Positions 4,634 through 30,978 of a DNA stretch of 42,237 nucleotides are shown one piece after another. The notes below the pieces were generated by a model. It did not search any database and had not been told where the DNA came from. It was given only the letters and a program-made list of their open reading frames with translations. The position numbers and the translations under genes are program-made. The stretch lies in contig JAZSBJ010000039.1 of NCBI GenBank assembly GCA_045602305.1, positions 1-42,237 of the forward strand, in the 5' to 3' direction. Source of the stretch: Eubacteriales bacterium (GTDB taxonomy: Bacteria > Bacillota > Clostridia > Oscillospirales > CAG-272). Position 1 is the stretch's first letter. Each line of letters opens with the position of its first letter.

Positions 4634-4692
4634 TGTGAAAACTTCCCTTTTTGGCTAGGCGAAAAAAAAGTAAAAAAATTCGTCCAAGCCTA

Positions 4693-4721
4693 TTGCTTTT
4701 TTGAAAGTTATATGTTATAAT
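4693..4721 (+). promoter_or_regulatory. Candidate promoter of rpmB (-35 TTGCTT, 17-nt spacer, extended -10 TGtTATAAT)
   Basis: TTGCTT at 4693-4698 and TATAAT at 4716-4721, preceded by TGT at 4713-4715. Confidence 0.6.
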
Positions 4722-4790
4722 ACTATCTGTTGATTTATGAAAGATGGTCGCTTCGGCGGCTGATGTGAAACGATTAGGAGGTAATGTCCA

Positions 4791-4976
4791 ATGGCAAAGT
4801 GTAGTGTATGCGGCAAGGGTGTTGTGTTTGGTAACACCGTTTCGCACTCTCACCGTAAGTGCAACAGAACCTGGAAGCCTAACATCCGCAAGGTAAAGGC
4901 TGTGGTCAACGGAACGAACAAGACCGTTTACGTTTGCTCCCGTTGCCTGCGTTCCGGCAAGGTTGAGCGCGCGTAA
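4791..4976 (+). CDS. rpmB: 50S ribosomal protein L28
   Basis: 61 aa, MAKCSVCGKGVVFGNTVSHSHRKCNRTWKPNIRKVKA..., a canonical L28. A GGAGG ribosome-binding site lies 8 nt upstream. Confidence 0.95.
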   Translation: MAKCSVCGKGVVFGNTVSHSHRKCNRTWKPNIRKVKAVVNGTNKTVYVCSRCLRSGKVERA

Positions 4977-4990
4977 GTGCTCTATAAAAA

Positions 4991-5016
4991 GCGCCCCTCA
5001 TCGGGGCGCTTTTTAT
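4991..5016. terminator. Bidirectional intrinsic terminator between the convergent rpmB and permease genes
   Basis: GCGCCCC (4991-4997), a 5-nt loop, then GGGGCGC (5003-5009). An A-run precedes it and a T-run follows. Confidence 0.85.
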
Positions 5017-6047
5017 TTTTCTTCTTCCTTGGCAGGGCGCAAGAACATTTCGTAGAGCAAGAGCGTTAAGGCGGGGAAAATAAGAATTCCCAAGAACCCG
5101 AAAAGGCGCGCGCCCGCGTAAAGCGCGAGAAGCGTCAAAAGAGGATGCACGCCGTAGCCGCGCCCAAGCAATCGCGGCTCAAGGAACTGCCGCAAAACGG
5201 TGATGACGCCAAAGAGGATCAAAAGTCCGATGCCGAGAAATCGCTCCCCTGCCAAAAGCGAAACGATCCCCCACGGCACAAGAAAGAGCCCGACACCCAA
5301 AACGGGCAAAAAATCGAGCAAGGCGATCAGCATTGACAAAAGCAAAGGATACTTCACATTTAAAAGAAGAAAGCCGATAAGAAGGAGCGCGAAGGCGATC
5401 AAGGTGAGCGTTCCTTGGGCACGAAGCACCGAGAGCGCGGCGCGCAATGCCGAATCCTTGAAAAAGCGGACCACGCGCGAAAGGCTTGCGGAAAGACGCT
5501 TTGAAAGACTTTCGTGTATGCGGTCAAGGTCAAGGCAAAAATAGACTGCCGCGATGACGCCCACCCCCAAAGAGAAAAAGAATGCGGGCAAGACGTCCGC
5601 AAGCGAGGCAACCACGCTTGGGAGCGCGGAAAGAAGGAGAGAGAGCCCCTCTTCCAAAGATCCGTTGGATGCAAGCGCATCTCCAACGATGGGAATGGCG
5701 GCAAGCCACGCGCGGATCTCCTCGGTAAGGCGCTCCCCTTCCCCCTCGAAGCGACCGAGGAAAAGGGAGATCTCGCGAAAGGCACCCTTGAGCGCCAAAA
5801 CGAGAAGCACGCCAAGCAACAACGCGGAAAGCACCACGAGGAGCAGCCGTGCAATACCAAGCGGCAGACGTGTTCGCTCGTTGAGCCATTTGGCGGGACG
5901 CCGCACGAGCATTGCAAGCCCCCACCCAAGCACGAAGGGAAAAAGAACCCCTGCAAGATATTTAAAAAACAGATAAAAGAGCGCGCCGCCGCCAAGCAAA
6001 AGCACGACGAGCGCCGCAAAGTGTGTAATTTTGTTTTGCATTGCCAC
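5013..6047 (-). CDS. AI-2E family (PerM/YtvI-like) integral membrane permease
   Basis: 344 aa with about 8 TM segments. The overall pattern (N-terminal TM pair, a long central loop, and a C-terminal cluster ...FLPVLGVGLFLVPWGIVSLL... with the G-rich, proline-containing helix) matches the UPF0118/AI-2E family as I remember it. No profile search was possible. Confidence 0.7.
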   Translation of the reverse strand: MAMQNKITHFAALVVLLLGGGALFYLFFKYLAGVLFPFVLGWGLAMLVRRPAKWLNERTRLPLGIARLLLVVLSALLLGVLLVLALKGAFREISLFLGRFEGEGERLTEEIRAWLAAIPIVGDALASNGSLEEGLSLLLSALPSVVASLADVLPAFFFSLGVGVIAAVYFCLDLDRIHESLSKRLSASLSRVVRFFKDSALRAALSVLRAQGTLTLIAFALLLIGFLLLNVKYPLLLSMLIALLDFLPVLGVGLFLVPWGIVSLLAGERFLGIGLLILFGVITVLRQFLEPRLLGRGYGVHPLLTLLALYAGARLFGFLGILIFPALTLLLYEMFLRPAKEEEK

Positions 6048-10523: not shown

Positions 10524-11585
10524 TTACCAACTTTTAAGAGGTGTAAATGCAGGATTGGGAACCGCAACCTCAATCTCTGCGCTTGCCACACTAAGCGGAA
10601 AGGGGTTCTCGTTTATGCTACGTGCTACAGTGACAGACGCTTTTTCGTCTAAAACAAACGCTTTTTCGATCGCCTTCTCCAAGCGTATTGCAAGCACATC
10701 GCAAAGTGCCATTTCTTCACAGCAATCTGCCATTTCCGGAAAACGGTTTTCCGAAAATCCAAAACTCTTTTCTGCTCGGTTTTTATCTTTTCCCAAAACT
10801 GCAACCTTAAAGAAATCAACGTTGAATAGGAAAGAAACACGAATGTTTTCTATGTTCGAGGACCTGTCTGCCACCTCATAGCGCTCCTTAAAGCAACCAA
10901 AGAGCCAATCGGCAATCTTATCCGTTAGCGGGCTTTGCGAAAAAAGTGCGGCACGCTCATCCATTCGAGCAAGGAACGCCGCTTTATAGCTTTCAATTTC
11001 ATCCATCGCTTGCTTTTCTTTTTTTCGAAACTCACTTTCGATCATATGACGCTTTTCTTCATACTTTTCCTCACATTCACGCAAAATTCCGTGAAGACGC
11101 TTGGTTAAACGCTTGTCAAGCCAGCTGTGAACGAGCAAAAACACAGGATATCCGATTGGACAAAGAATAATTGCATAAGTATATGCAACGATAGGACGAA
11201 GAAGCAACATAATGATTGGGAAACTAACGGCACCGCCAAGAGCACAGCTTAAGGCGCCGGAAACGCCCTTGTCGTTGCCAAAGACAGCCAACTGTTCCCA
11301 CAAGCCGAAAAATCCAATGATGGCACCAATAACAATCCCCACCGGGATCATCCAAAGCACCGAACTCTTTAATTTGAAAAAGCCAACAGCTCGAATATAT
11401 CCTCGAAAACTCCTTTCACATTCCAAAGAAAAAGCACCGACTGCCTTTTCTCTTGCTTCTTTTTCACCCTTTTTCTCTGCCTTTTTTTGAAGCTCTCCTA
11501 TTTTGTGGTTTGTTTTCTCCAAAGCGTCGTTGATTTCTTGTTCCTTTTGCTCCGCAAAATTTTGCGGAAATTCTGTAAAATCCAT
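10524..11585 (-). CDS. Hypothetical membrane protein: N-terminal K/E-rich helix, about 4 TM segments, soluble C-terminal domain
   Basis: The ORF is open to 11597 (GTG), but the ATG at 11585 has the better AAAGGTGA ribosome-binding site. The gene is visibly AT-richer than its neighbours. I recognise no family motif. Confidence 0.6.
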   Translation of the reverse strand: MDFTEFPQNFAEQKEQEINDALEKTNHKIGELQKKAEKKGEKEAREKAVGAFSLECERSFRGYIRAVGFFKLKSSVLWMIPVGIVIGAIIGFFGLWEQLAVFGNDKGVSGALSCALGGAVSFPIIMLLLRPIVAYTYAIILCPIGYPVFLLVHSWLDKRLTKRLHGILRECEEKYEEKRHMIESEFRKKEKQAMDEIESYKAAFLARMDERAALFSQSPLTDKIADWLFGCFKERYEVADRSSNIENIRVSFLFNVDFFKVAVLGKDKNRAEKSFGFSENRFPEMADCCEEMALCDVLAIRLEKAIEKAFVLDEKASVTVARSINENPFPLSVASAEIEVAVPNPAFTPLKSW

Positions 11586-11706
11586 AAGATTGATCACCTT
11601 TCGCTATTTTTACTTCTGTTTTGGAATTAATTTTATTATAATTCTGTTTTGGAATTTTGTCAAGTCCTTTTCGGGATATAATTCTAAAAAAGGATAAAGG
11701 GTGGCG

Positions 11707-12056: not shown

Positions 12057-12237
12057 TTTTGCTACAGCTCTGTTTTTAGGCAAAAGGGCTAGGCGGATTT
12101 TGAGCAGAATTTTTCGTTCTCGAGCGTGAGGCGTATATGCATACGTCGAGCGATGAGAACGAAAAAAGCAAACAAAAATTAAATTCCAATGGAGAAAACC
12201 GCAAGGTTTTCAACCTTAGACAATGCAAGAAATATAA

Positions 12238-12313
12238 AAGGCGAGAGATGAACTCTCGCCTTTGTTTTGAAAAATATTTTTTGTTTGCGGTTATGCCAAA
12301 ATGCGTCAGCGCC
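12238..12313. repeat. Copy 2 of the ~75-nt imperfect direct repeat. Its hairpin (12238-12263) doubles as the terminator of the five-gene operon.
   Basis: AAGGCGAGAG (12238-12247), loop ATGAA, CTCTCGCCTT (12253-12262). On the minus strand it is followed by TTTTATATTT, immediately 3' of the stop codon at 12314-12316. Confidence 0.7.
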
Positions 12314-15300
12314 TTAGTCCTCGGGGAAGAGGAACTGGAGCGTCAGGTTGCGGCTGTTGGGCCACAGCTGAACGCTTCTGTCAAGGAGCTTGTTGGCTTG
12401 CTTGTTCTTTCCGTCCTTGTTTACAAGGGCGCGAGCCTTTTCCTTGACGGCGTGGATACCGCCATCCGTCCAAAGATAACGGACGACCATATCGTACACG
12501 TTCTTATCCGCGCAACGGAATACCGCACAGGGCGCCGCCTTTTCAAAGGGACGCTCGCTGACTGCCTTAGCAAAGACCTTGGCAATCTGCTCCTCGTTGT
12601 ACGAGGTGAGATATCCGCCGTGGAAGCGGCAGTATTCGTGCTTGGTGGCACGGAATTCCTCAAGATCTCCAAAGAGCTCGGGGTCGGGCTCACGGACTGC
12701 CTTATCCTCGCCAAGCATATTCTCCTTGGCGGTGACGCAGAAGTAGCCGTAGCCGACGACGTTCTGATCGGCGTCACCTCTCTTGGTGTTCGAGGGATCG
12801 CCCCAAGTCACGTCGAGATAGTAGCAATACTTGCCGAGCTTAACGACGTTCCAAGCGTGCGTCTTGCTGACGACCTGACCGCAACAGATACCGACCGACT
12901 GCAAGAGGTACTGTGTCGCAACCGCATAACCGACGCATACGACCTTGTGGTCGACGAGCGCGCTATGCAAGGAGCGAAGCGTATCCTCTTCGCGCACATT
13001 CTGCCCTGCACCGCTGTCAAGACCGACACCGTCGTAGTCGAGGTTGAGGATCAAGCGGCGGTAGATGGTGAGCATCGCTTCGTAGGGATCCGTCTTTCTC
13101 GTGATGCCCTTGGTAAAGAACTTAACGTGGGCGCGAAGCTCTTTTCTGTGCTTCTGCACACGCGCAACGTCCACCTTACCGTCGGCACCGAGGCAACGGA
13201 AGCAGAGCGACAGGCTCTTGACCTTATCGCCCACGTGGCTGTAACGGAAGGTTTCCGTCCAGAAGAATTCGGGATAATCGTAAAGCACGAAGTAGAAGAT
13301 ACGGCGCACGGTCGCAAGCGGCATATCGTAGCACGGAATGGGCTCGTCGCTAAAGTCGGAGATGTGGCGCGCGATCTCGTTGTAAAGACGGATCTGAGGA
13401 TTTCTATCCTCTTCCGCCTCGTGCGGGATCAGCTCGCTTCCCGTCTTGAGCTTTGCGAGCTTGCCGTTCTTCTCGGCTTCGGGCTCCTTCGGTCTTTGCA
13501 TTCCGTCGGAAGCAGAGGAAGTATCGCCCTCGTCGGCACCTGCGTCGGCATCGCCCTCGTCGGGTGTGGTATCTCTTCCGTCGTTGCTATCGTCGTCGCT
13601 GGCGTGCTTGCCGCGCAGATAACGCTTCCAGAAGCGCGGTACGCGGTCGGGATCGTAGAGGGCATCGAGTCCCTCGTTGCCCGATTCGTCATCGTCGCCG
13701 GGGGTGGGAAGGATCTCTTCGGGACCGTCGGGAATGGCGTTTTCCACCACGAAGTCGAAGGAATTTCTGCCCGCATTGTCTGCGATATACTGCTTGATCT
13801 GTTCCACGAGAGGCAACCAGCTATCGGCGATCGCCGCACGGGTAAATTCCGCGCGCTCTGCGGCACCGATGCTGTCGAGGTAGCAAAGCTCCTCGTAGTA
13901 GAGCTGGGCGACTGCGGCAGTCGTGACACAGTTTTCATCTCTGTGCCATACCGAAAGGAGACCGCGCAACACCGCGACAAACATACAGTCACGCGGCAGG
14001 TCGCACTCGACCTCTACGCGGCGATCGGCATACGAGAGGCGGTAGAAATACTCGCTGAGCTCTTGTCCCTCTTCGAGCGAGAAGGGATCTGCGAGCGCAA
14101 AGCCCACGTTCTTCGGAAGCTCTCGGTCGGGGTACTTCTCTGCCCAATAGCTCTTGACCTCGTCGACCATACGGGAGAGGTCCTTATCCTCGCTGACCGC
14201 TTCGACCTGACAGTCAAAGCAGATGTATCTGTGCTCGTCGTAGATCGCATAGCGTCCCGTAACGAGAGGACGCTTACAGAAGGAGCAGTGCGTGGGCTTT
14301 TGCACCTCTTCCTCTTCCTTATCCTCACCGATCTTGCGCTCACAGTTGGCAAGAAGTGCAAGGCTTCCGTCGAGGTCGTATACCGAGGGCAGAGTGTCCG
14401 CGCCAAAGTAGATGTAATGTGCGTCCCCTGCGGGAAGCGTGGGATGCTCCTTGAGCCACTTGAGGTAGTCGAAGATGTAGGAGAACAGCTCCTCCATAAT
14501 GCGCGCACCGCCGTCGTACAGACGGTCGAGAATGCCCACATCCTCATCCGCGTCGTTCACGATGAGGAACTCTGCGACCTTCTCATCCTTTGCGGCGGGG
14601 CTATCTACGATATAGGGGTACAGCGTTTCAACGCATCCCTCGTAGCTCTCGTTGACCGACGCCTTCTCGGTGGGAGAAAGCAGAACGGGACAAACCGCAA
14701 CGCAACGGTAGGTTTCGGGGAACATCGTGCGAAGGAACTCGTTGAGCACGGCAGCAAGGAGCTTTCTCGTGCCGTCCGAGCATTTCTCGCGCGATACGAG
14801 GCGCACCGTGAGGATCTTTCCTGCCGAGAGGCGTCTTGCCTGCTCGTTCACCGTACGCTCGTCGAGATTCGGGTTACCGCCGACGCCTTCCTTAAAGTTG
14901 AGCGTCTGGCTGTTTGCCATCAAGCGATAGAAGCCGTAGGTTTCGCCAAGGATCTCCGCCTTTTCGTATCCGACGTCGATCTCCGCCAGCGTACCCGTGC
15001 TATAGTGATGCACACCGTGAAGCGCGCCCGTATCGGCACGGTCCTTCATCGTGTAGCGGCGAAGGAATGCCGTATCAAGGCAGGAGTTGTTGGTGATGTT
15101 TTCCTGACGCAGGTAAATGGTGCGGCGGTCGGGCGAAATCTTATCGATTTCATACTCGTGGTTGTCAAAAATGATGTACTGACCGGGCAAATACTGCTGA
15201 TATACACGGTCGGGGAAGGTATCGAGCGAGCCGATAACGGTACCGTGGAGCGAAAGCTCGACACGGGTATTGTTGGAGAGCAGCTTCTCGAACACCTCTT

Positions 15301-17770
15301 CAATGCGCAGGAAGGAAACGTGCAGCTCGGTATGAAGCTCGTAGCCGTCCTTGCGCTCGGGCTGAATGATGCTGTAGAAGTTGTATACGGGCTTCTTGGC
15401 GACGGTGTATTCTACTACCTTGCCGCCACTCTTGCTTTCGCGCTTCTCTGCGATCATCTTGGGATCGGACATCAGCTCGGAGAGCAAGAACGCCACGCGG
15501 GCATTGAGGTCGTACGCGGGCTTTGCACCCTTTTCCTTCATCGCGGCGTCAATGCGCTCGGAGAAGCGGGAAATTGGCATACCCGACGCGCTTGCCGTTG
15601 CCTCGCAAAGCAGGCGCAGAAGCAGAATCTTATCGGTGTCCGCGTGCTCGGTCGCACGGGGCTTGATGAGGTCGGACTGGTTGACGTACATTTCCACGCG
15701 GTCGCCGAAATACTCACGGAGCAGATACGGGCGGCTGAGAATGTGCAGAATGGACGCTTCTCTGCCGTGGAAACGGGTGTACGCATAGATGGCGGCGGCA
15801 AGGTTGCAACGGTCATCGGTGCAGATCATATAGTTGACGTTCGGCACCTGCTTGTGGAAGAGGTTGATCTCCACGTCGTGCGCCTTGAAGTTCTGCTTTT
15901 CCGCAGGGCTAAGCGGAACGCTCGTCAGAATACGAATGCCGTCCACGCGCGCCCCGTACGCCGCCTCGGCGATGAGGGACTCGATGGTCGTTTCGCTTTG
16001 ACCGTCCTTGTTGTAGAGGACGTTGCTCTCACGGTTCCAAAGCATATAGGAAACGTGCTCGTTTTCCTCTGCACTGTTGCAATCCACGATCTCCTCGTCA
16101 ATGCAGAAGAACTTGCGAAGGCTTGCGGAGAAGCCCTGAAGCACGTCGCGCGAGAGGAACATAAAGCGGATCTTTCCATCCGTCGCCTCTTGCAAGCGGC
16201 ACGCCATAATGGTGCAAAGGTAGCTGTTGAGGTTGAGGATCTTGTCGGCGTCCACGAAAACGGCGTTGCAGGCTTCCTCAAAGAAATAAGGATAGTTTTC
16301 GACAAGGTTGTCGGTTGCAAAGTCCTCGGGTACACCGACGAGGACGTCTGCCTCGTTGATGTGATGGGAGTCTGCACTGTAAACGCGCCAGGTTTCCTCG
16401 CGCGTGACACCCGTGATCTCGGTCAAGCGGTTACCGATGTATTGCTGAAGACCGACCACCTTGCTTCTGTCGGAAACGATAAAGATGATTCTCTGTCCCG
16501 AAAGAAGTCGCATATAGGTATAGGAGATGATATACTCGCCCAGCTGAGAATAGAAGGAAGAACCGAAATACACGTGTCGCTCGTTGAACACCGCGTCAAG
16601 ACCACTCATATAGTTTTGAATGACCTTGCCGTAGTTGTTCTTCATATACGAGCTGATATACCCCAGCGCGTCCTTGTAGATCTCGTTGGTACAGAGATAC
16701 TCAGCCACCTCTTTGGACTCGGTGGCGGGGAAATAGCGAATGCTGTGGTTCTTGGCAAAGCGGCGCAGAATGTCGCAACGCAGCTTGTCAAGACCAATCT
16801 TCTTTTTCTCTTTTTCTTCCTTTTCCTCGATCTTGATCTTACGCTTGGTTTCCACGGGGGGCTTGCAGGGCGCACGGAAGGTGTTGCAAAGCTCTTGCAA
16901 GAGGATAATGGAAACAAAAGGATAGATGTACATCTTCGCCGTTACCCAGTTGAGAATGGTGTAAACGATCTCGGGCAGGGGGAAGAATACGGCGAGAAGC
17001 AGAAGGAAGAACAAAACGGCGTACAGCGCTTCTACAACGTAGATGAAGAACTGCACGACCGCCGTTGCGGCGTGCACGAAGCGGCGCGCGTGCTTGAAAT
17101 CGGGGGCTTCAAAGAAAAGACCCCAAAAACCCATATAAATACGGTAAAGGAAGGGATGGTCCTTACGGAACTTCTCGTCCTCGGCGTGCGTCTTGCGCTC
17201 GGCAAGCGCCTTTTCTTCCTCGTCGGCGGCAGACTTTTCTTCCTCGTCATCCGTCTTCTTGCGGCGTGCGCGGAAGAAGACCGAGATGCGGCGGGGCTTT
17301 TTCTTGGTTTCGCCTTCGTCGCCCGTGGCAGCGTCCTCGCCGTCCGTCTTTTTCTTCTTTTTAGACTTCTTCTTTTTCTTGCGGAAGCCAAAGATAACAC
17401 CGAGCGCACCCTTTACAAACGCCTTTAAGAACAGAAGCAAATAAAGCGTCACGAGGTTCAAAAGCAGAACCTTAAAGAGCACCGAGCTTCCAAAGGTGAG
17501 AGAGGCGGATGCTCGCGAGAGCAGCTTTGCGATAAAGGGCACGGATGCAATCGCATTTGCCACCGAGAAGATGGCGCCGTATACCACGGCGAGCGCCACG
17601 AACTCAAGAACCGTCAAAAGAACGAAAAATGCGTTCAGTCGGTTGTTGGGCGCGTCATAGCGAAGTCCGTAGAAGGTGGAGAAGCGTCTTAACTTCTTGG
17701 GAAGCGGGAGAAGCGGGAGAAAGAGGAGCAATACCGAACAAATGATAATAAGGATCTTTACAGCTGTCAT
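12314..17770 (-). CDS. Giant (1,818 aa) polytopic membrane protein. Contains a degenerate SF2-helicase-like module, a CxxC...CxxC zinc ribbon, an acidic linker and a C-terminal transglutaminase-like cysteine protease core.
   Basis: - N-terminal ~310 aa has several TM helices split by a K-rich then D/E-rich loop (RKKKKKSKKKKKTDGEDAATGDEGE...).
- Helicase-like blocks: RIIFIVSDRSKV (Ia-like), VLVGVPEDF (Ib-like), AVFVDADKIL (DEAD-like), FMFLSRD (III-like), YMICTDDRCNLAAAI (V-like), FHGRE (VI-like). No GxGKT Walker A is present anywhere.
- Zinc ribbon HCSFCKRP...YICFDCQ at nt 14207-14290.
- TGase core VVCVGYAV...THAWNVV...YYLDVTWGD.
- The ATG lies 5 nt after the upstream stop. Confidence 0.9.
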   Translation of the reverse strand: MTAVKILIIICSVLLLFLPLLPLPKKLRRFSTFYGLRYDAPNNRLNAFFVLLTVLEFVALAVVYGAIFSVANAIASVPFIAKLLSRASASLTFGSSVLFKVLLLNLVTLYLLLFLKAFVKGALGVIFGFRKKKKKSKKKKKTDGEDAATGDEGETKKKPRRISVFFRARRKKTDDEEEKSAADEEEKALAERKTHAEDEKFRKDHPFLYRIYMGFWGLFFEAPDFKHARRFVHAATAVVQFFIYVVEALYAVLFFLLLLAVFFPLPEIVYTILNWVTAKMYIYPFVSIILLQELCNTFRAPCKPPVETKRKIKIEEKEEKEKKKIGLDKLRCDILRRFAKNHSIRYFPATESKEVAEYLCTNEIYKDALGYISSYMKNNYGKVIQNYMSGLDAVFNERHVYFGSSFYSQLGEYIISYTYMRLLSGQRIIFIVSDRSKVVGLQQYIGNRLTEITGVTREETWRVYSADSHHINEADVLVGVPEDFATDNLVENYPYFFEEACNAVFVDADKILNLNSYLCTIMACRLQEATDGKIRFMFLSRDVLQGFSASLRKFFCIDEEIVDCNSAEENEHVSYMLWNRESNVLYNKDGQSETTIESLIAEAAYGARVDGIRILTSVPLSPAEKQNFKAHDVEINLFHKQVPNVNYMICTDDRCNLAAAIYAYTRFHGREASILHILSRPYLLREYFGDRVEMYVNQSDLIKPRATEHADTDKILLLRLLCEATASASGMPISRFSERIDAAMKEKGAKPAYDLNARVAFLLSELMSDPKMIAEKRESKSGGKVVEYTVAKKPVYNFYSIIQPERKDGYELHTELHVSFLRIEEVFEKLLSNNTRVELSLHGTVIGSLDTFPDRVYQQYLPGQYIIFDNHEYEIDKISPDRRTIYLRQENITNNSCLDTAFLRRYTMKDRADTGALHGVHHYSTGTLAEIDVGYEKAEILGETYGFYRLMANSQTLNFKEGVGGNPNLDERTVNEQARRLSAGKILTVRLVSREKCSDGTRKLLAAVLNEFLRTMFPETYRCVAVCPVLLSPTEKASVNESYEGCVETLYPYIVDSPAAKDEKVAEFLIVNDADEDVGILDRLYDGGARIMEELFSYIFDYLKWLKEHPTLPAGDAHYIYFGADTLPSVYDLDGSLALLANCERKIGEDKEEEEVQKPTHCSFCKRPLVTGRYAIYDEHRYICFDCQVEAVSEDKDLSRMVDEVKSYWAEKYPDRELPKNVGFALADPFSLEEGQELSEYFYRLSYADRRVEVECDLPRDCMFVAVLRGLLSVWHRDENCVTTAAVAQLYYEELCYLDSIGAAERAEFTRAAIADSWLPLVEQIKQYIADNAGRNSFDFVVENAIPDGPEEILPTPGDDDESGNEGLDALYDPDRVPRFWKRYLRGKHASDDDSNDGRDTTPDEGDADAGADEGDTSSASDGMQRPKEPEAEKNGKLAKLKTGSELIPHEAEEDRNPQIRLYNEIARHISDFSDEPIPCYDMPLATVRRIFYFVLYDYPEFFWTETFRYSHVGDKVKSLSLCFRCLGADGKVDVARVQKHRKELRAHVKFFTKGITRKTDPYEAMLTIYRRLILNLDYDGVGLDSGAGQNVREEDTLRSLHSALVDHKVVCVGYAVATQYLLQSVGICCGQVVSKTHAWNVVKLGKYCYYLDVTWGDPSNTKRGDADQNVVGYGYFCVTAKENMLGEDKAVREPDPELFGDLEEFRATKHEYCRFHGGYLTSYNEEQIAKVFAKAVSERPFEKAAPCAVFRCADKNVYDMVVRYLWTDGGIHAVKEKARALVNKDGKNKQANKLLDRSVQLWPNSRNLTLQFLFPED
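12812..12937 (-). other. Predicted transglutaminase-like catalytic triad (Cys 12935-12937, His 12857-12859, Asp 12812-12814)
   Basis: Codons were located by hand: TGC in D-H-K-V-V-C-V-G-Y, CAC in T-H-A-W-N, GAC in Y-L-D-V-T-W. The spacing (C, 26 aa, H, 15 aa, D) and context (G-x-C-x-G-[FY]-A ... H-A-W ... D) fit the transglutaminase-core superfamily. Confidence 0.75.
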
Positions 17771-17775
17771 TGCTC

Positions 17776-19767
17776 TTACATTCTCCTTTCTTCAAAGATG
17801 TCTTCGATCACGTCAATGGTGAAGACCTTGTAAATGCGGTTTAGGCGGAAGGATTCGTTGATCTTGAACTCGTCGTCATCGAGGGCGGCCCCACCGTCCG
17901 CCTTGTGGGCGATCTGCATACTCGTGAGCATACCGAGCAGAACGTCGCGCACACGCTCAAGCATCTCTCGATGCTCTTCGATGTGGCGGTTGATCTCACG
18001 GTTTGCTTCGTAAAGGATCGCAAGCTCGGCAAGCTCGTAGTGAATGCTCTCCACCGCAGGCAAATATGCGGTGTAGCGCTTGCGCAAGCGGAAAATGCTT
18101 TGTCTTTGCTTGACAAGGCAGGCTTCGTGCAGGTCCGTCATCTCCAGCTTTGCAGAACGGATATCTCGCAAAATGGGAATCACGTGAAGCAAAGCGGAAA
18201 GCACGAACACACCGCCGAACACGGCAAGAGCAATCGAGAGAAGCACCGTTGCGCCAAGGTTCGAATCCTTGATCTGGAACACGAAATAGGGCACGAGCAT
18301 CGCAAGCATCACAAGGAAGAAGCAAACGATGTTGGTGCGAACGTATTTCTCGATGCGTGCCTTGCCCGAAAGATATTTATCTCTTGCATCGTTCGCCTTA
18401 GCAAACTCCTCGGTGTAATCTGCGCCGTCGTAATCGGCGTCGATCGCTGCCTTGAGAATGCGGCGCATCGTGACCTTTTTCTTCTCTACCGCGTTCTCAT
18501 ATTCAAGTCCCGAGGGATACTTGCTTTGCTTTTTCGCCTCGCGAAGCAAAAGTCTTGTATCCTGCTCGGTGGCGTGGTTTCTCATCTCGTCGCGGCGTTG
18601 CTTGTATTCGCTCATATAGCCCGCAAGCTCGCGCTTTTCTTCCTCGCTCTTGGTTCCTGGGGGAACGGACGCCATCTTTTTGATGGCGGCATAGCGGTCT
18701 TCAAAGCTCGTCCCCTTTGCTGCTGCGATGACTTCCATTTTTTCTTCATCGCTCATCGCATCCACGCAAATGTCGTCCGAAACGCTCTCGCGGGTTTCGA
18801 GCACGTAGAAGCCGTTGGCAGTACCACTTTGACGAACAAGCTCCAAGGCGCTTTGCACCTTGCCATAGGAATGGCGAAGCGTGTCAAAGAAGCGCTCCTT
18901 GTTCATCTGGGGCACGTCTACCACGTCATCTCTGCGGTCAACCGAAAGCTCAACCTCCTGCTCGTAGGCGCGAATCAGTGCCAAGGAGAGGTTAAGGTTA
19001 TCAAAGGCGGCACGGCTCTCGCTTCTTGCGGACGCCGTTCCCGCTACGTAGGTGCGGGAGCGCGAGCCGAAGGCGCGGTACGCGATATCGTATTTTTCCG
19101 CAAGGTTGCGGTAGAAGGTGTCGAAGCTCGCTTCCTTCTTTTTTCCGATGTCCTTGCAGAAATCCTCGGCACGGAACACGAGCTTTCCACCGCGATACTC
19201 TGCCGAGAAGGTTTCATAGAGCGTGGGCCCCTTTTCTTCGGGGGCGGGCTCTTCCTTTTTCGATGCCTTCTTTTCACCCTTTGCGGGGGCTTCCGTTTCG
19301 CGAGGGGCGCGCTTTTCCGCCACAATACGGTCGTGCTCGTCTTCCAGACCTAAAAGAAGCGCAAGCTGTTCCTTTTCCGCCGCATTCTCGCGAATGGTAT
19401 TCTTTTCGGTGTACTGAATGTAGAACACCTCCATACCGTCAAAGCCGAGCTGGGCGCGGCGAAGCGGCGTGTAGAGATGGTCGTTCAAATATATTTCTAT
19501 CAGCGACTTGTAAATAGCGAGATATTCGCTGACGGGATTCTCCTCGGGAAAGAGCGTTTTTTCAAACGCCAAAAAGTCAACAAGCACCACCACGCGGTAT
19601 TCGCCCGCGGTCATCGGCTGTTGACGCTTTACGATCTCCTCGGCACAGTCCTCAATGTTAGCAAGAGGACTCCGCATCCAAGCGATCTTATTATATCCGA
19701 CGAGCTCAAAAAGCAGATCGGTCTTGAGAACCTTATTCTCCGATGTATTGATTACGTAGGTTAACAT
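17776..19767 (-). CDS. Hypothetical 663-aa protein with a transmembrane hairpin (aa ~478-532, nt 18172-18336) between large charged, helix-rich regions
   Basis: AAAGGA ribosome-binding site. No recognisable family motif. TM segments are TNIVCFFLVMLAMLVPYFVFQI and ATVLLSIALAVFGGVFVLSALLHVIPIL. The stop is 5 nt before the next ATG, suggesting translational coupling. Confidence 0.8.
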   Translation of the reverse strand: MLTYVINTSENKVLKTDLLFELVGYNKIAWMRSPLANIEDCAEEIVKRQQPMTAGEYRVVVLVDFLAFEKTLFPEENPVSEYLAIYKSLIEIYLNDHLYTPLRRAQLGFDGMEVFYIQYTEKNTIRENAAEKEQLALLLGLEDEHDRIVAEKRAPRETEAPAKGEKKASKKEEPAPEEKGPTLYETFSAEYRGGKLVFRAEDFCKDIGKKKEASFDTFYRNLAEKYDIAYRAFGSRSRTYVAGTASARSESRAAFDNLNLSLALIRAYEQEVELSVDRRDDVVDVPQMNKERFFDTLRHSYGKVQSALELVRQSGTANGFYVLETRESVSDDICVDAMSDEEKMEVIAAAKGTSFEDRYAAIKKMASVPPGTKSEEEKRELAGYMSEYKQRRDEMRNHATEQDTRLLLREAKKQSKYPSGLEYENAVEKKKVTMRRILKAAIDADYDGADYTEEFAKANDARDKYLSGKARIEKYVRTNIVCFFLVMLAMLVPYFVFQIKDSNLGATVLLSIALAVFGGVFVLSALLHVIPILRDIRSAKLEMTDLHEACLVKQRQSIFRLRKRYTAYLPAVESIHYELAELAILYEANREINRHIEEHREMLERVRDVLLGMLTSMQIAHKADGGAALDDDEFKINESFRLNRIYKVFTIDVIEDIFEERRM

Positions 19768-27599: not shown

Positions 27600-27669
27600 T
27601 GTTTTTCTCCTTACCTAAGGTTTGGGGTGTATACCCCCTCAAGCGGTACGCCGAGGGGATGTGCCCCGA

Positions 27670-30600
27670 TTATTTGTACTTTCCGACCGCACGCGCGGAA
27701 ACGAAAAGATAAAATTTGGTTTTGAGGACCAAGCCTCTCGTGCCCGTCAAGGGCTGATCGATGCTTGCCTTTGCCGTTTTGGGCGTGATCTTGACCTTCA
27801 CGCTCGAAAGGGCGGTTTTGTTGAATGTGAAGCTCGCACCGGGCTTCAGCGACGCCCAGCCCTTGTTCTTCAGGGTGGACGAAACAATGGCACCGCTGGG
27901 CTTTAATTCACCCTCAAGGCACTTGATGCCCGCCGCGGTACAAACGCCCGCGTTTTGGTGGTACTTCAGCGTTCCCTCGGACGTCGTGATGTCCTTGGAC
28001 CAGAAGCAAAGACCGACGAAGGGTAAAAACCGCTTTAGGATGAGATAGTCGAAAAGCCCTAAGCGCTTGACGACGATGACCTTGCCCTTAAGCTCGGTTT
28101 CGTCCACCGTGTAATCCAGAATGGGAACACGGACGAACACACCCTTGGGAATGCGCTTGACCTTGCCAAAGGTGAGGGCAAGCACGATGAGCTGAATGAT
28201 GTAAAGGATCAAGAGGATGCGCCAGATGTAGGACACGATGCTCGCCTTTGCAAGAGAAATGGTGCCGACGGCGTTTACACTGCCGTAATGGACGTCCATA
28301 TCCAAGGCGTCACCGAACACGAGCATCGAGGTCACAAGTCCGCGGAGCAGGAAGAACTGCCCGCCCGTCGGAAGAACGGTGAGGACGGGAACGCCGCCAA
28401 CGCTTTCGACCGTTAAGGTCGCGCGCACGGGCGAGAGGAAGGTCTTGTAGGCGCTGTGATCGAGGTAAAGCGTGCCGTCCTCAAGTGCTGCGGTAAGCTC
28501 TTCCTCGGAGAGAGGAATGCCGTCGCGCAAAACCTTAAAGGAGATGGTGCTTTGATTTTTCTTGAGGGCGAAGCGGTCCACGCTGCCCGTGGGGGCGAGG
28601 GGTACCACCTCAAAAACGGTATCCGTGAGCTTGATCGCTTTTTCGAGCTTGCATTCCACGGTTTCTACCGTTGCGCCGCGGAAGGTCGCCGTCAAGAGCA
28701 CGTCGTGCTCGCCCGTCTTTTTCGCAAGCTCGCCAAGCGACGCTGCCGTGGGAGCGTAGGTGAGGACGTTGCCATCGCACACGGCGTGCTTCGTCACGTC
28801 TACACCGCCGACCGTGAGGCGGTAGGTGAGAAGCGCGTTATCAAAGGGGATCTTGGTTTCCTGCGCCGTCAGCTCGAAGCGGAAGGCGTCTTGGTTGTCA
28901 AGGATCTCGTGAAGCGTGCAGGAAAGATTGCCTGCACCCGTGTTCGTAAGGACGAGTCCCGAGGGGTAGTAGCCGATGGGCACGTCAACCGTTCTCGGGT
29001 TCCCTTCCGCGTCCTTAACCGAAGCGGTGACGGTATAGGTGCCGTATTCCTTACCCGAAAGGTCTAAGGTAACGGTGAAGGTACCGTTCGCGTTTTTGTC
29101 CATACGGAAGTTTTGGAATTCACTTCCGTCCTCGGTCGTCACCGCCACCGTGGGGCGGAAGGTTTCGAGGACAGAAAGCGCGGTGATTTTCTGGTTGTCG
29201 CTAAAGACGGAGAAGGTGGTCTTATAGGTCGTCGTGTTTTGGATGTCTACGTCCCCGTGCTCAATGCGGAAGAAGGACGGGTTTTCCAAAACGACGCAGG
29301 GGAAGGCTGCATAGAGTGTGTACTGCCCGTCGAGCATACTGACCGAGATGCCGATCTCCTTTTTTCCCTCGGCAAGCGTGACAGGTTCGCCGGGCTCGTA
29401 GCTCTTGGTGTCGTAGGTCACGCGCGCAGATGTGGTACCGCCAATGGCAGAAGGATCGATGACCTTGCCCGTATCCTGCTCCACGATCTTGTAGGAGAGA
29501 TACACGGTATCGCCCTTTTTCATATGGCTGTTGATGTATGCGGCGTCGACCGCCTTGCGTCCTCCGCCGTCGTTCACCTCAATGAGGGGCTCAAGCGTCA
29601 GCGCTGGCTCAAGCAGCACCGAGATCACGGCGTTGGCGCCGGGGGCTTCGTCCAGTGTGAGAACGATCTCGCCGCCCGAGAAGGTGCCGCTGGTACCGCG
29701 GCTGAGGACGGTGGTGAAGCCGCCCTTCATCTCGTTGACGGGGGAATCAAACGCCGCCTCTTGGCTCACCGAAACGGCGGCGCCGTTGTAGGTGGGAAGA
29801 ATGCTTTCATCGGGGCGTGCGTTGGTGTTGGTCGCCATTACCGTGACGGTACGCAGGCTGAAGCCGACGTCCGAAAGGGGAATTCGGATCGTCTTGCTGT
29901 TTGCGTCTGCGTGGATCGCAAGCGGGTATCTGCCCGTGATGCGGTTGGCAACGCTTTCCATAACGCCGCCGATCTCCGAGGTGTTGGCTGCCTTGTAGGC
30001 GGTGAAGTTCGCCTTATCTTGGAGCGACGAAGCATCCCTTAAGTCAAGCGCGTTGACGTCAAAGCCGATGTAGATGCTTTGGAAAAAGGCGTACTTGGAG
30101 AGATCCTCCTCAAAGAGTGCGGCTGTTTTGTTCACGTCGCCGCCGATTCCCGTGAAGGCACCGTCGGTGAGGACGACGAGGAAGTATTCGTTTTCGCTTT
30201 GCTCGTCCGCAGCCACCTCGGTGGTCAGCTTCATTCCGTAGCGGTTGACGAGCTGATCGACCGCGACCTCAATGCCCTTGGGGGGCGTCTGTCCCGTGGG
30301 GTTTTGTGCAAAGAAGCTCGTGTTGATGACACGGCGAATCTCCGCTTCCCTATCCTCAGCGCTGAGGTTGACCTCAATGACGCTCGAATCGGTGTAGTCC
30401 TTCACATTATCGGTCGAGCCGGATTTGTTCATCGGTGTGATGATCAGCTTATCGTTTTTGCCAAGCGTTGTCATCAGCGTTTGGAGCGCGTACTTGGCGT
30501 ACTCCCAGCGATAGACCGTGCCGCCGTCGTTTTTCATCGAGCCCGAGTTGTCGAAAAGGACCGAAACGATCTTGTTCTTCGTGTAGCTCGCTTGCTCTTC

Positions 30601-30687
30601 CTTGGCGGTGACGGAGCCTGCAGGCAGAAGCGGCAAAAGCAAAACCGCCGCAAGCAGAACCGACAAAAGCCTGATCTTGAGTTTCAT
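27670..30687 (-). CDS. Secreted, single-pass membrane-anchored von Willebrand factor A (vWA) domain protein (1,005 aa)
   Basis: - Signal peptide MKLKIRLLSVLLAAVLLLPLLPAGSVTA.
- MIDAS motif in VSVLFDNSGSM (DxSxS, nt 30538-30552), with the later LVVLTDG strand typical of vWA.
- About 600 aa of T/V/G-rich, beta-type sequence.
- One TM helix IVSYIWRILLILYIIQLIVLALTF (nt 28168-28239).
- A 165-aa basic C-terminal tail (nt 27673-28167). Confidence 0.88.
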   Translation of the reverse strand: MKLKIRLLSVLLAAVLLLPLLPAGSVTAKEEQASYTKNKIVSVLFDNSGSMKNDGGTVYRWEYAKYALQTLMTTLGKNDKLIITPMNKSGSTDNVKDYTDSSVIEVNLSAEDREAEIRRVINTSFFAQNPTGQTPPKGIEVAVDQLVNRYGMKLTTEVAADEQSENEYFLVVLTDGAFTGIGGDVNKTAALFEEDLSKYAFFQSIYIGFDVNALDLRDASSLQDKANFTAYKAANTSEIGGVMESVANRITGRYPLAIHADANSKTIRIPLSDVGFSLRTVTVMATNTNARPDESILPTYNGAAVSVSQEAAFDSPVNEMKGGFTTVLSRGTSGTFSGGEIVLTLDEAPGANAVISVLLEPALTLEPLIEVNDGGGRKAVDAAYINSHMKKGDTVYLSYKIVEQDTGKVIDPSAIGGTTSARVTYDTKSYEPGEPVTLAEGKKEIGISVSMLDGQYTLYAAFPCVVLENPSFFRIEHGDVDIQNTTTYKTTFSVFSDNQKITALSVLETFRPTVAVTTEDGSEFQNFRMDKNANGTFTVTLDLSGKEYGTYTVTASVKDAEGNPRTVDVPIGYYPSGLVLTNTGAGNLSCTLHEILDNQDAFRFELTAQETKIPFDNALLTYRLTVGGVDVTKHAVCDGNVLTYAPTAASLGELAKKTGEHDVLLTATFRGATVETVECKLEKAIKLTDTVFEVVPLAPTGSVDRFALKKNQSTISFKVLRDGIPLSEEELTAALEDGTLYLDHSAYKTFLSPVRATLTVESVGGVPVLTVLPTGGQFFLLRGLVTSMLVFGDALDMDVHYGSVNAVGTISLAKASIVSYIWRILLILYIIQLIVLALTFGKVKRIPKGVFVRVPILDYTVDETELKGKVIVVKRLGLFDYLILKRFLPFVGLCFWSKDITTSEGTLKYHQNAGVCTAAGIKCLEGELKPSGAIVSSTLKNKGWASLKPGASFTFNKTALSSVKVKITPKTAKASIDQPLTGTRGLVLKTKFYLFVSARAVGKYK

Positions 30688-30735: not shown

Positions 30736-30753
30736 GCGCGTAGCGCTACGCGC
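30736..30753. promoter_or_regulatory. Perfect 18-bp GC-rich palindrome GCGCGTAGCGCTACGCGC in the AT-rich leader of the vWA/tubulin-like operon
   Basis: Its reverse complement is identical to itself. It lies 49 nt upstream of the vWA start codon and downstream of the candidate -10. Confidence 0.6.
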
Positions 30754-30800
30754 CTATATATTTAATAATATCACCGTATAGGGATACAATCCTAACCTAT

Positions 30801-30829
30801 ATTATACAAATATTCTCGAGCAAATGCAA
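30801..30829 (-). promoter_or_regulatory. Candidate promoter of the five-gene operon (-35 TTGCAT, 17-nt spacer, -10 TATAAT)
   Basis: On the minus strand, TATAAT is at 30806-30801 and TTGCAT at 30829-30824. The -35 is weak, matching the consensus at 3 of 6 positions. Confidence 0.45.
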
Positions 30830-30978
30830 CACTTTTCGCAAGATTTTCATTATTTTTGTCAATTTGTCGAAATATTTGTTCATATCTTGTGCGTTTTGCC
30901 TACATTCTGCCTTGAATTATCTTCCTTCATTTCCGTTTTTTGTAAGCATTGCATTACATTTCCGGCAAAAACAAAAAA

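Follow-up and report, generated by a model that had tools for sequence, protein, structure and literature searches.

The vWA gene and its predicted product

The window analysed here is a stretch of 42,237 nucleotides (nt) from an Eubacteriales bacterium of the Oscillospirales (CAG-272; NCBI GenBank assembly GCA_045602305.1, contig JAZSBJ010000039.1). Our subject is a minus-strand operon of five genes, the first of which encodes a protein with a von Willebrand factor A (vWA) domain and the second and third of which encode tubulin-like proteins of the FtsZl1 family (Table 1). The vWA gene is a single open reading frame (ORF), from 30687 to 27670, for a product of 1005 amino acids (aa). Terminator-like hairpins bound the operon at 31007-30974 and 12263-12237, and the gaps between its genes are 70, 80, 129 and 5 nt, with no intervening T-run terminator.

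Table 1. Features of the vWA gene, its product and the surrounding operon in the window.
Feature	Position (nt)	Strand	Basis
vWA membrane protein gene, complete	27670..30687	-	ATG at 30687, stop 27670-27672; ribosome-binding site GGAAGGAAG just upstream
Signal peptide, aa 1-28, predicted cleavage VTA/KEE	30604..30687	-	n-/h-/c-regions, family conservation
vWA domain, aa ~36-252	29932..30582	-	Invariance of the metal ion-dependent adhesion site (MIDAS), model, profile matches
MIDAS residues	D46/S48/S50 30538-30552; T134 30286-30288; D175 30163-30165	-	
Stalk, ~five immunoglobulin (Ig)-like beta-sandwich domains, aa ~253-812	28252..29931	-	AlphaFold2, Foldseek, weak Big_13/MG2 Pfam matches
Single transmembrane (TM) helix, aa 817-840 (IVSYIWRILLILYIIQLIVLALTF)	28168..28239	-	Hydrophobicity, model, family topology
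Tail domain, predicted cytoplasmic, aa 841-1005, beta-rich, lysine-rich, family-restricted	27673..28167	-	Composition, model, profile search
Operon gene 2, tubulin-like FtsZl1, 1276 aa	23769..27599	-	N-terminal Tubulin_2 (PF13809) E 2.4e-36; T1 GVGGTG, T4 GGTGSG
Operon gene 3, paralogous FtsZl1, 1263 aa	19897..23688	-	N-terminal Tubulin_2 E 7.4e-32; 57% identical to gene 2
Operon gene 4, 663 aa, 2-TM hairpin aa 479-526	17776..19767	-	No family match
Operon gene 5, 1818-aa polytopic membrane protein	12314..17770	-	Zinc ribbon C1162-C1187; transglutaminase-like Cys-His-Asp core ~aa 1554-1690
Conserved upstream block, putatively regulatory	30790..30945	-	Alignment of five divergent loci
Terminator-like hairpin closing the operon	12237..12263	-	Hairpin prediction

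Relatives of the vWA protein were found by scanning one genome per GTDB species, which gave 260 loci. Of these, 83 were fetched and 69 distinct homologues were analysed; inclusion required a C-terminal TM segment, so the single TM segment seen in 69 of 69 follows from the selection. The best 80 of the 260 loci all lie in metagenome-assembled genomes (MAGs) of gut or rumen Clostridia (Oscillospiraceae, Christensenellaceae, Lachnospiraceae, Acutalibacteraceae and Coprobacillus). Full-length homologues measure 987-1066 aa. Alignment A1 and the first structure model were built without the initiator Met, so that their residue numbers are one lower than those of the full protein.

The N-terminus, MKLKIRLLSVLLAAVLLLPLLPAGSVTA followed by KEE, has the n-, h- and c-regions of a Sec-type signal peptide: the n-region is positive, the core hydrophobic (Kyte-Doolittle 2.32), and positions -3 and -1 are occupied by small residues. 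A comparable hydrophobic segment is present in 61 of the 69 homologues, with a conserved xSA or AxA c-region. A lipoprotein was considered and rejected, as the signal peptide has no lipobox Cys.

The DNSGS motif of the MIDAS lies at aa 46-50. All five MIDAS residues (D46, S48, S50, T134 and D175) are invariant in 25 full-length homologues of 27-87% identity and again in a second set of 25 domain sequences with identity down to 24%, and the D-x-S-x-S motif occurs in 68 of the 69 homologues, a median of 20 residues past the hydrophobic signal core. Support from general profile searches was marginal. Pfam VWA_2 scored 20.7 bits on the isolated domain, below its 27-bit gathering cut-off, and a Pfam scan of the whole protein at E<0.01 did not report VWA; at that threshold VWA_2 matched 7 and VWA matched 2 of 25 homologues. 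The full-length family profile searched against PDB sequences found no solved vWA domain and only a weak Ig-like match, and NCBIfam gave the protein only sub-threshold repeat or adhesin matches, while NCBI names two of the homologues 'VWA domain-containing protein'. A domain-only profile reaches the solved vWA domains of mussel PTMP1 (5.5e-4), ITIH4 (8.8e-4), CACHD1 (0.11) and CLCA1 (0.42), and the PTMP1 and ITIH4 matches align the MIDAS and LTDG motifs. In the AlphaFold2 model (mean predicted local distance difference test score, pLDDT, 82.5 overall and ~85-93 in this region) the strands and helices (E37-44, H59-73, E79-84, E103-105, H112-122, H136-148, E165-173, H184-197, E201-208, E227-232 and H235-250) follow the canonical vWA order of a Rossmann-like alpha/beta fold, which we took as b1-a1-b2-b3-a2-a3-b4-a4-b5-b6-a6. 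Since MIDAS invariance, modelled fold order and the domain-only profile matches together settle what the general searches left marginal, we regard the N-terminal domain, on this sequence and model evidence, as a divergent but genuine vWA domain.

Behind the vWA domain the model places about five beta-sandwiches, and Thr, Val and Gly make up 27.9% of the ectodomain. With Foldseek, the whole model matched multi-Ig surface or extracellular proteins at about E 1e-9 to 1e-7, among them the Bacillus anthracis S-layer protein Sap (9e-10) and the vWA pilus adhesin SpaC (3.9e-9), with further matches to titin, cadherins, PrgB and complement C3. A sortase-anchored adhesin was rejected, the sequence being without LPxTG. 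The helix at aa 817-840 is the only strongly hydrophobic segment besides the signal peptide and is followed by GKVKRIPKG, as the positive-inside rule expects. Among the homologues, 63 of 69 satisfy this rule, having more K/R in the 15 residues after the helix than in the 15 before it (mean 3.2 vs 1.07). Charge is distributed asymmetrically across the helix, with a net -33 on the 786-aa ectodomain vs +19 on the tail, and the model keeps head, stalk, helix and tail apart. We predict from these sequence and model features a type-I topology, with the vWA head outside the cell and the tail inside.

An earlier note on this DNA, made from its letters alone, had read the gene as encoding a cleavable-looking signal peptide, a vWA domain with an intact DNSGS MIDAS, a Thr/Val/Gly-rich run suggestive of stacked beta domains, one hydrophobic helix and a lysine-rich 165-aa tail that must be cytoplasmic if the N-terminus is exported. 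Each of these elements was recovered: the helix maps exactly to nt 28168-28239, and the tail, with 23 lysines, falls on the cytoplasmic side by the predicted topology.

The tail, the adjacent tubulin-like genes and their surroundings

The tail comprises 165 aa with 23 K and 6 R. Among the 69 homologues its length is 134-201 aa (median 169), compared with ~600 to ~2100 aa for the part that precedes the TM helix. In one Christensenellaceae MAG (L036) the homologue, encoded by the ORF containing 3123-5060, has 2324 aa and combines the same signal peptide, MIDAS and single TM helix with a tail of 166 aa; the stalk can thus expand more than three-fold with the tail unchanged. Modelled on its own with AlphaFold2, the tail reached a predicted template modelling score of 0.73 and a pLDDT of 75.8. 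Constant length and the tail-only model together argue for a folded cytoplasmic domain rather than a spacer. Foldseek found no relative of the tail model in the PDB (best E 1.3, template modelling score <0.2) or among the BFVD viral structures (best E 0.55), and Pfam returned only a noise-level match to 'Enas' (E 0.079). An exhaustive profile search of 1.84 billion representative proteins gave 30 matches only, which either occupy the very C-terminus of proteins of 736-1242 aa or fall in short ones of 91-307 aa, the latter probably fragments. As the matches are confined to this family, the domain is family-restricted. New here is the indication, from sequence and model, that the tail folds as a domain which is confined to the family and for which no structural relative was detected. 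A Y.F motif near its C-terminus is kept in most tails.

Linkage was assessed by tblastn of the five window proteins against the fetched loci. In every sufficiently long locus a same-strand tubulin-like (PF13809, FtsZl1) gene lies downstream of the vWA gene, and the linkage is near-obligate. The window type of cassette, in which the vWA gene is followed by two tubulin-like genes and by genes for proteins of ~660 aa and ~1820 aa, is conserved to about 26% vWA identity. A second type, found in L050 and L064, combines a vWA protein of ~880 aa with one Tubulin_2 gene of ~1200 aa and a protein of ~750 aa, and in some loci a relative of the 1818-aa protein comes next. The placement of the vWA gene at the head of a tubulin-like operon, also proposed in the earlier note, is borne out, being gene 1 of 5 in an order that recurs among relatives. 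A search with the tubulin-like N-terminal domain that was aimed at Bacillus-type operons, as a check on how general the topology is, returned only close Clostridia fragments.

The vWA protein is the fastest-evolving member of the operon. Between the window and locus L001 it is 47% identical, vs 79% and 75% for the tubulin-like proteins and 62% for the 663-aa protein. Its tail identity is mosaic, so that homologue P0012 has 49% identity overall but 73% in the tail, and P0008 drops from 71% in the vWA domain to 29% in the tail. Distance correlations computed across 30 cassettes relate the tail to the first tubulin-like protein (Pearson 0.82 for the middle third, Spearman ~0.6), and the relation persists in a partial Mantel test that controls for the ectodomain (0.63, p=0.001). 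The tail follows its own ectodomain less closely (Spearman 0.31-0.34), and its correlation with the second tubulin paralogue is poor.

Tail sequences fall into discrete types that do not follow the ectodomain phylogeny (L084 and L086 vs L004 and L085). In operons that we call type B, divergence is greater in the tail and in both tubulin-like genes than in the ectodomain and the 663-aa protein, a sequence pattern that suggests either block exchange or co-evolution of a contiguous tail-tubulin segment.

The two tubulin-like proteins are full-length paralogues, with 57% identity over ~1270 aa and the T1 and T4 GTP-binding signatures intact in both. This suggests a heteromeric pair, by analogy with alpha/beta-tubulin or BtubA/B. 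In the 663-aa protein two TM segments form a hairpin around a 10-aa loop, so that both of its large ends are predicted to be cytoplasmic; no Walker A motif was seen in it. At its N-terminus the 1818-aa protein has 6-7 TM segments with loops that are either <=16 aa or strongly basic. Its soluble part of 1527 aa, most likely cytoplasmic, contains 37 Cys and a CxxC...CxxC zinc ribbon (aa 1162-1187). The C-terminal core bears the motifs VCVGYA...THAWN...DVTWGD, and the protein matches Pfam Transglut_core weakly and an NCBIfam transglutaminase-related model at 3.5e-13. It probably serves the system as a cytoplasmic peptidase or cross-linking effector. Because no extracellular loop of the partners exceeds ~16 aa, the vWA protein alone has a substantial extracellular part.

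Upstream of the vWA gene, a TATAAT -10 element (30806-30801) lies 17 nt from a TTG-type -35 element (30829-30824), and these elements are followed by a conserved near-palindrome, TAGGATTGTATCCCTA. Among loci whose vWA proteins are 46-69% identical, the region 30790-30945 is more conserved than the coding sequence. The invariant stretches of this ~150-nt block are GGCAAAAC..ACAAGA and GTTG..TTT-17-TATAAT, and its sequence has the look of a regulated promoter that includes an operator. The 5' leader of the vWA gene contains a perfect palindrome of 18 bp, GCGCGTAGCGCTACGCGC (30736-30753), which is particular to the window: none of the four related loci in the alignment has it. Scanning the region upstream against Rfam gave only sub-threshold matches, which lie on the terminator hairpin of metA. 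The 70 nt that separate the vWA gene from the first tubulin-like gene (27600-27669, minus strand) can form a GC-rich hairpin (-26.7 kcal/mol, z -2.5) without a T-run, a candidate element for mRNA processing or stability that could set how much vWA protein is made relative to the downstream proteins.

A 339-nt intergenic region separates the vWA gene from metA upstream, which ends in the strong terminator-like hairpin at 31007-30974. On the metA side the operon is flanked by metA, a pyridoxal phosphate enzyme of Cys/Met metabolism (O-acetylhomoserine sulfhydrylase-type), a class IV aminotransferase, 2-oxoacid:ferredoxin oxidoreductase subunits and acyl-CoA synthetases, and on the other side by DNA polymerase I, SbcCD-like genes, a cyclophilin and an AI-2E transporter. 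The metA-side synteny is retained in the window, L001, L084 and L085. A phage or mobile-element origin was rejected, as the flanks are housekeeping genes that are syntenic in relatives. PADLOC models matched none of the five operon proteins. The housekeeping, syntenic flanks and the lack of a PADLOC match argue against a mobile defence island, though they are compatible with a defensive role. Directly downstream of the operon terminator is a 357-aa ORF without a Pfam match (10524-11597, minus strand), which has its own consensus promoter, TTGACA-17-TATAAT, at 11663-11635.

Relation to described systems

FtsZl1 is, to our knowledge, the most divergent branch of the tubulin/FtsZ superfamily. The family, now Pfam Tubulin_2, was defined by comparative genomics (Makarova & Koonin, 2010, Biol Direct 5:33; PMC2875224). 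In most FtsZl1 operons there is a gene for a vWA protein whose MIDAS is intact, some of these vWA proteins carry signal peptides and/or TM segments, and a role in membrane remodelling was proposed; the open review of the same paper pointed out that an exported vWA protein and a cytoplasmic FtsZl1 protein would reside in different compartments (PMC2875224). The T6-H7 elements are not recognisable in FtsZl1 proteins (PMC2875224). Fifteen years after the family was described, our literature search turned up neither experiments on FtsZl1 or its vWA partner nor a solved structure. Additional file 5 of that paper lists, for 'Bacteroides' capillosus ATCC 29799, a vWA protein of 861 aa (BACCAP_04124) and an FtsZl1 protein of 1183 aa (BACCAP_04123), followed by B5 (BACCAP_04122, 658 aa) and B12 (BACCAP_04121, 1435 aa); Ruminococcus lactaris has the same vWA-FtsZl1-B5-B12 order (PMC2875224). 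'Bacteroides' capillosus is now placed in the Oscillospiraceae. Compared by gene order and sizes, both represent a single-tubulin form of the window cassette.

The window gene is therefore a member of a known, computationally described operon type. It shares with the operons of 2010 a MIDAS vWA gene next to an FtsZl1 gene, together with lineage-specific membrane proteins, and differs in that FtsZl1 is duplicated, the vWA protein is longer (1005 aa) and the last gene encodes 1818 aa with a transglutaminase-like core. A conserved type-I topology with a cytoplasmic domain of constant size is absent from the 2010 description.

A second group of comparable systems was described by Kaur, Burroughs, Iyer and Aravind (2020, eLife 9:e52696; PMC7159879). 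Found in Firmicutes, these combine a pair of tubulin genes with two vWA genes, one of them for an extracellular protein, and with GAP1-N2 and GTPase components. These authors read such GTPase-centric systems as conflict systems (PMC7159879). Common to both are two tubulin-domain genes with long C-terminal extensions and a membrane protein with an extracellular vWA domain. The GAP1-N2 systems comprise a GAP1-N2 protein and a TRAFAC-clade GTPase with N-terminal zinc ribbons, whereas the window operon is without the GAP1/TRAFAC GTPase, the fibronectin type III (FNIII)-repeat protein and the second, YtkA-fused vWA gene; Pfam, NCBIfam and PADLOC searches of the operon proteins and flanking genes detected no GTPase or P-loop family. 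Furthermore, the window vWA protein has one TM helix after its ectodomain where the GAP1-N2 vWA proteins have several, and its neighbourhood is housekeeping rather than island-like. The suggestion of the earlier note that a link of this kind would be unusual does not hold for the gene arrangement, since vWA/FtsZl1 operons with exported or membrane vWA proteins have already been described (PMC2875224; PMC7159879).

Other likenesses concern the vWA protein itself. SpaC of Lactobacillus rhamnosus GG (PDB 6m48; Foldseek E 3.9e-9 over 897 columns) shares the exported vWA/MIDAS head and the stacked Ig-like domains. Unlike the SpaC pilus adhesins, the window protein is without LPxTG and has no pilin or sortase genes among its neighbours; it is TM-anchored, has a 165-aa cytoplasmic domain and is encoded with tubulin-like GTPases. 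With integrins it shares, by prediction, the type-I single-pass topology and an extracellular MIDAS domain. An integrin, in contrast, pairs an alpha with a beta chain, contains beta-propeller, hybrid, PSI and EGF domains and binds talin through short NPxY tails, whereas here there is a single gene, a stalk of Ig-like domains only and a folded 165-aa tail with no NPxY. The integrin-like topology claimed in the earlier note stands as far as single-pass type-I architecture with a MIDAS goes, and no further, since the heterodimer, beta-propeller, hybrid domain, EGF domains and NPxY motif are all missing. CglB, the vWA adhesin of myxobacterial focal adhesions, is an outer-membrane lipoprotein coupled to MreB indirectly via the Glt/Agl complex (PMC9946355). 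CglB and integrins share with the window protein the concept of an outside MIDAS-type vWA adhesion module linked through the envelope to an inside cytoskeleton-associated machine, but CglB, unlike the window protein, is not one membrane-spanning polypeptide. The relation of the window protein to integrins and CglB is one of analogy, not membership.

Proposed role and alternatives

We propose, with a probability of roughly 55%, that the vWA protein serves as the membrane-spanning subunit, with its head outside the cell, of a vWA/FtsZl1 machine that couples an outside ligand to GTPase assembly. It is strongly predicted that the Sec signal peptide exports the N-terminus and that a MIDAS-competent vWA head is carried on a stalk of about five Ig-like domains which, at perhaps 20-25 nm, would be long enough to cross the Gram-positive wall. 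A single helix is likewise predicted to span the membrane, with a basic folded domain of ~165 aa in the cytoplasm. The gene is predicted to be co-transcribed with those for the two FtsZl1 paralogues and for two membrane-anchored cytoplasmic proteins, one with a transglutaminase-like cysteine-peptidase core. In the mechanism that we propose, the metal ion of the head would bind an acidic side chain of an external ligand on the wall, a neighbouring cell, a host surface or an invader, and the tail would dock the first FtsZl1 paralogue, or its complex with other partners, at the membrane. Through binding at the one end and docking at the other, ligand state and GTPase assembly would be coupled, whether outside-in or inside-out.

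Several observations weigh against this proposal. The contact of the tail with the tubulin-like proteins is something that we infer from sequence. In fine mapping of the tubulin-like proteins no sub-region stood out after control for the whole protein, and because the coding sequence of the tail lies directly beside the first tubulin-like gene, one recombination tract covering both would also yield such distances. Since co-adaptation and such a tract fit equally well and no sub-region emerged, we treat the co-variation as a lead, not as proof. The tail model is of moderate confidence only (pLDDT 75.8), and sequence conservation in the tail is low, with P847, G849 and R886 alone invariant in 17 aligned tails. 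The 2-TM 663-aa protein and the polytopic 1818-aa protein could be the real membrane tethers. As to transcription, the public sequencing runs that hold the operon sequence are DNA gut metagenomes only. Lastly, polymerisation of FtsZl1 has never been demonstrated (PMC2875224), and the premise of the earlier note that the operon makes tubulin-like polymers is not supported. Its view of the vWA protein as the candidate to tether or regulate them from outside the cell keeps its ground in part, in that this is the sole operon product with a large ectodomain and its tail tracks the adjacent tubulin-like gene; physical contact between the two is the part that is not supported.

Three other readings have to be set against ours. 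The cassette may be a biological-conflict system directed at phages or other invaders, of the kind that Kaur et al. (2020) put forward, with the same topology but another role, which we think unlikely. Invaders would then be sensed by the exposed vWA ectodomain, assembly of the tubulin-like GTPases would set an NTP-dependent threshold, and the transglutaminase-like peptidase would act as effector. Systems that pair two tubulin-coiled-coil genes with an extracellular vWA protein are on record in Firmicutes (PMC7159879), and the rapid evolution of the vWA protein (47% identity in L001 vs 79%, 75% and 62% for the partners), its mosaic tail and the peptidase-like Cys-His-Asp core in the last gene would all suit such a role. 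However, none of the five proteins has a PADLOC match, neither operon nor flanks contain a GAP1-type or other P-loop GTPase, a second vWA gene or an FNIII-repeat gene, and in the window, L001, L084 and L085 the operon is surrounded by conserved, syntenic housekeeping genes rather than by a variable island.

It also seems improbable to us, though worth weighing, that the protein is a simple TM-anchored surface adhesin or wall protein, co-regulated with the tubulin-like system and physically uncoupled from it. The tail would then serve only for anchoring or sorting, and the real membrane tethers would be the 2-TM and polytopic proteins. A mere anchor needs no foldable domain of constant length, here 165 aa, behind ectodomains that vary three-fold among ~69 homologues; the strict first-gene position beside FtsZl1, kept across families to about 25% identity, argues for stoichiometric partnership, and the divergence of the tail follows that of the first tubulin-like protein. 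Against these points are to be set the similarity of the ectodomain to Gram-positive adhesins and S-layer proteins, the membrane anchoring and large cytoplasmic parts of two other operon proteins, and the weak conservation of the tail sequence. Far less credible is a cytoplasmic vWA domain, with an N-terminal segment that is no export signal, acting as an intracellular peptide-binding GTPase co-factor as in MoxR-vWA systems. Many prokaryotic vWA proteins are cytoplasmic NTPase partners (PMC7159879; PMC2875224), but in this family the positive n-region, hydrophobic core and AxA-type c-region are conserved, K/R are enriched after the TM helix (mean 3.2 vs 1.07 before it), the fold matches of the ectodomain are all to extracellular proteins, and by sequence the vWA domain matches extracellular vWA domains best.

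Beyond the coupled machine that we favour, a more specific version may be considered, which we offer tentatively and hold to be doubtful. The protein would be a functional integrin analogue in one polypeptide, in which ligand binding at the MIDAS is transmitted by a single helix to an undescribed cytoplasmic fold that directly nucleates, anchors or releases a heteromeric FtsZl1 assembly. If true, gut Clostridia would possess a ligand-gated tubulin-like cytoskeleton at the membrane.

The architecture described here offers a testable answer to the compartment puzzle of 2010, namely that the membrane is crossed by the vWA protein itself, which displays a folded domain on the cytoplasmic side. What this work adds to a known operon type is a cytoplasmic domain that is constant across the family, an orphan in fold, and whose divergence follows that of the adjacent tubulin-like gene. 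If the tail does not bind the tubulin-like proteins, the protein would be an ordinary surface vWA adhesin in a known operon type. If it does, it would constitute a direct link from envelope to tubulin in bacteria, and a handle on the function of cassettes that are widespread in gut Clostridia.

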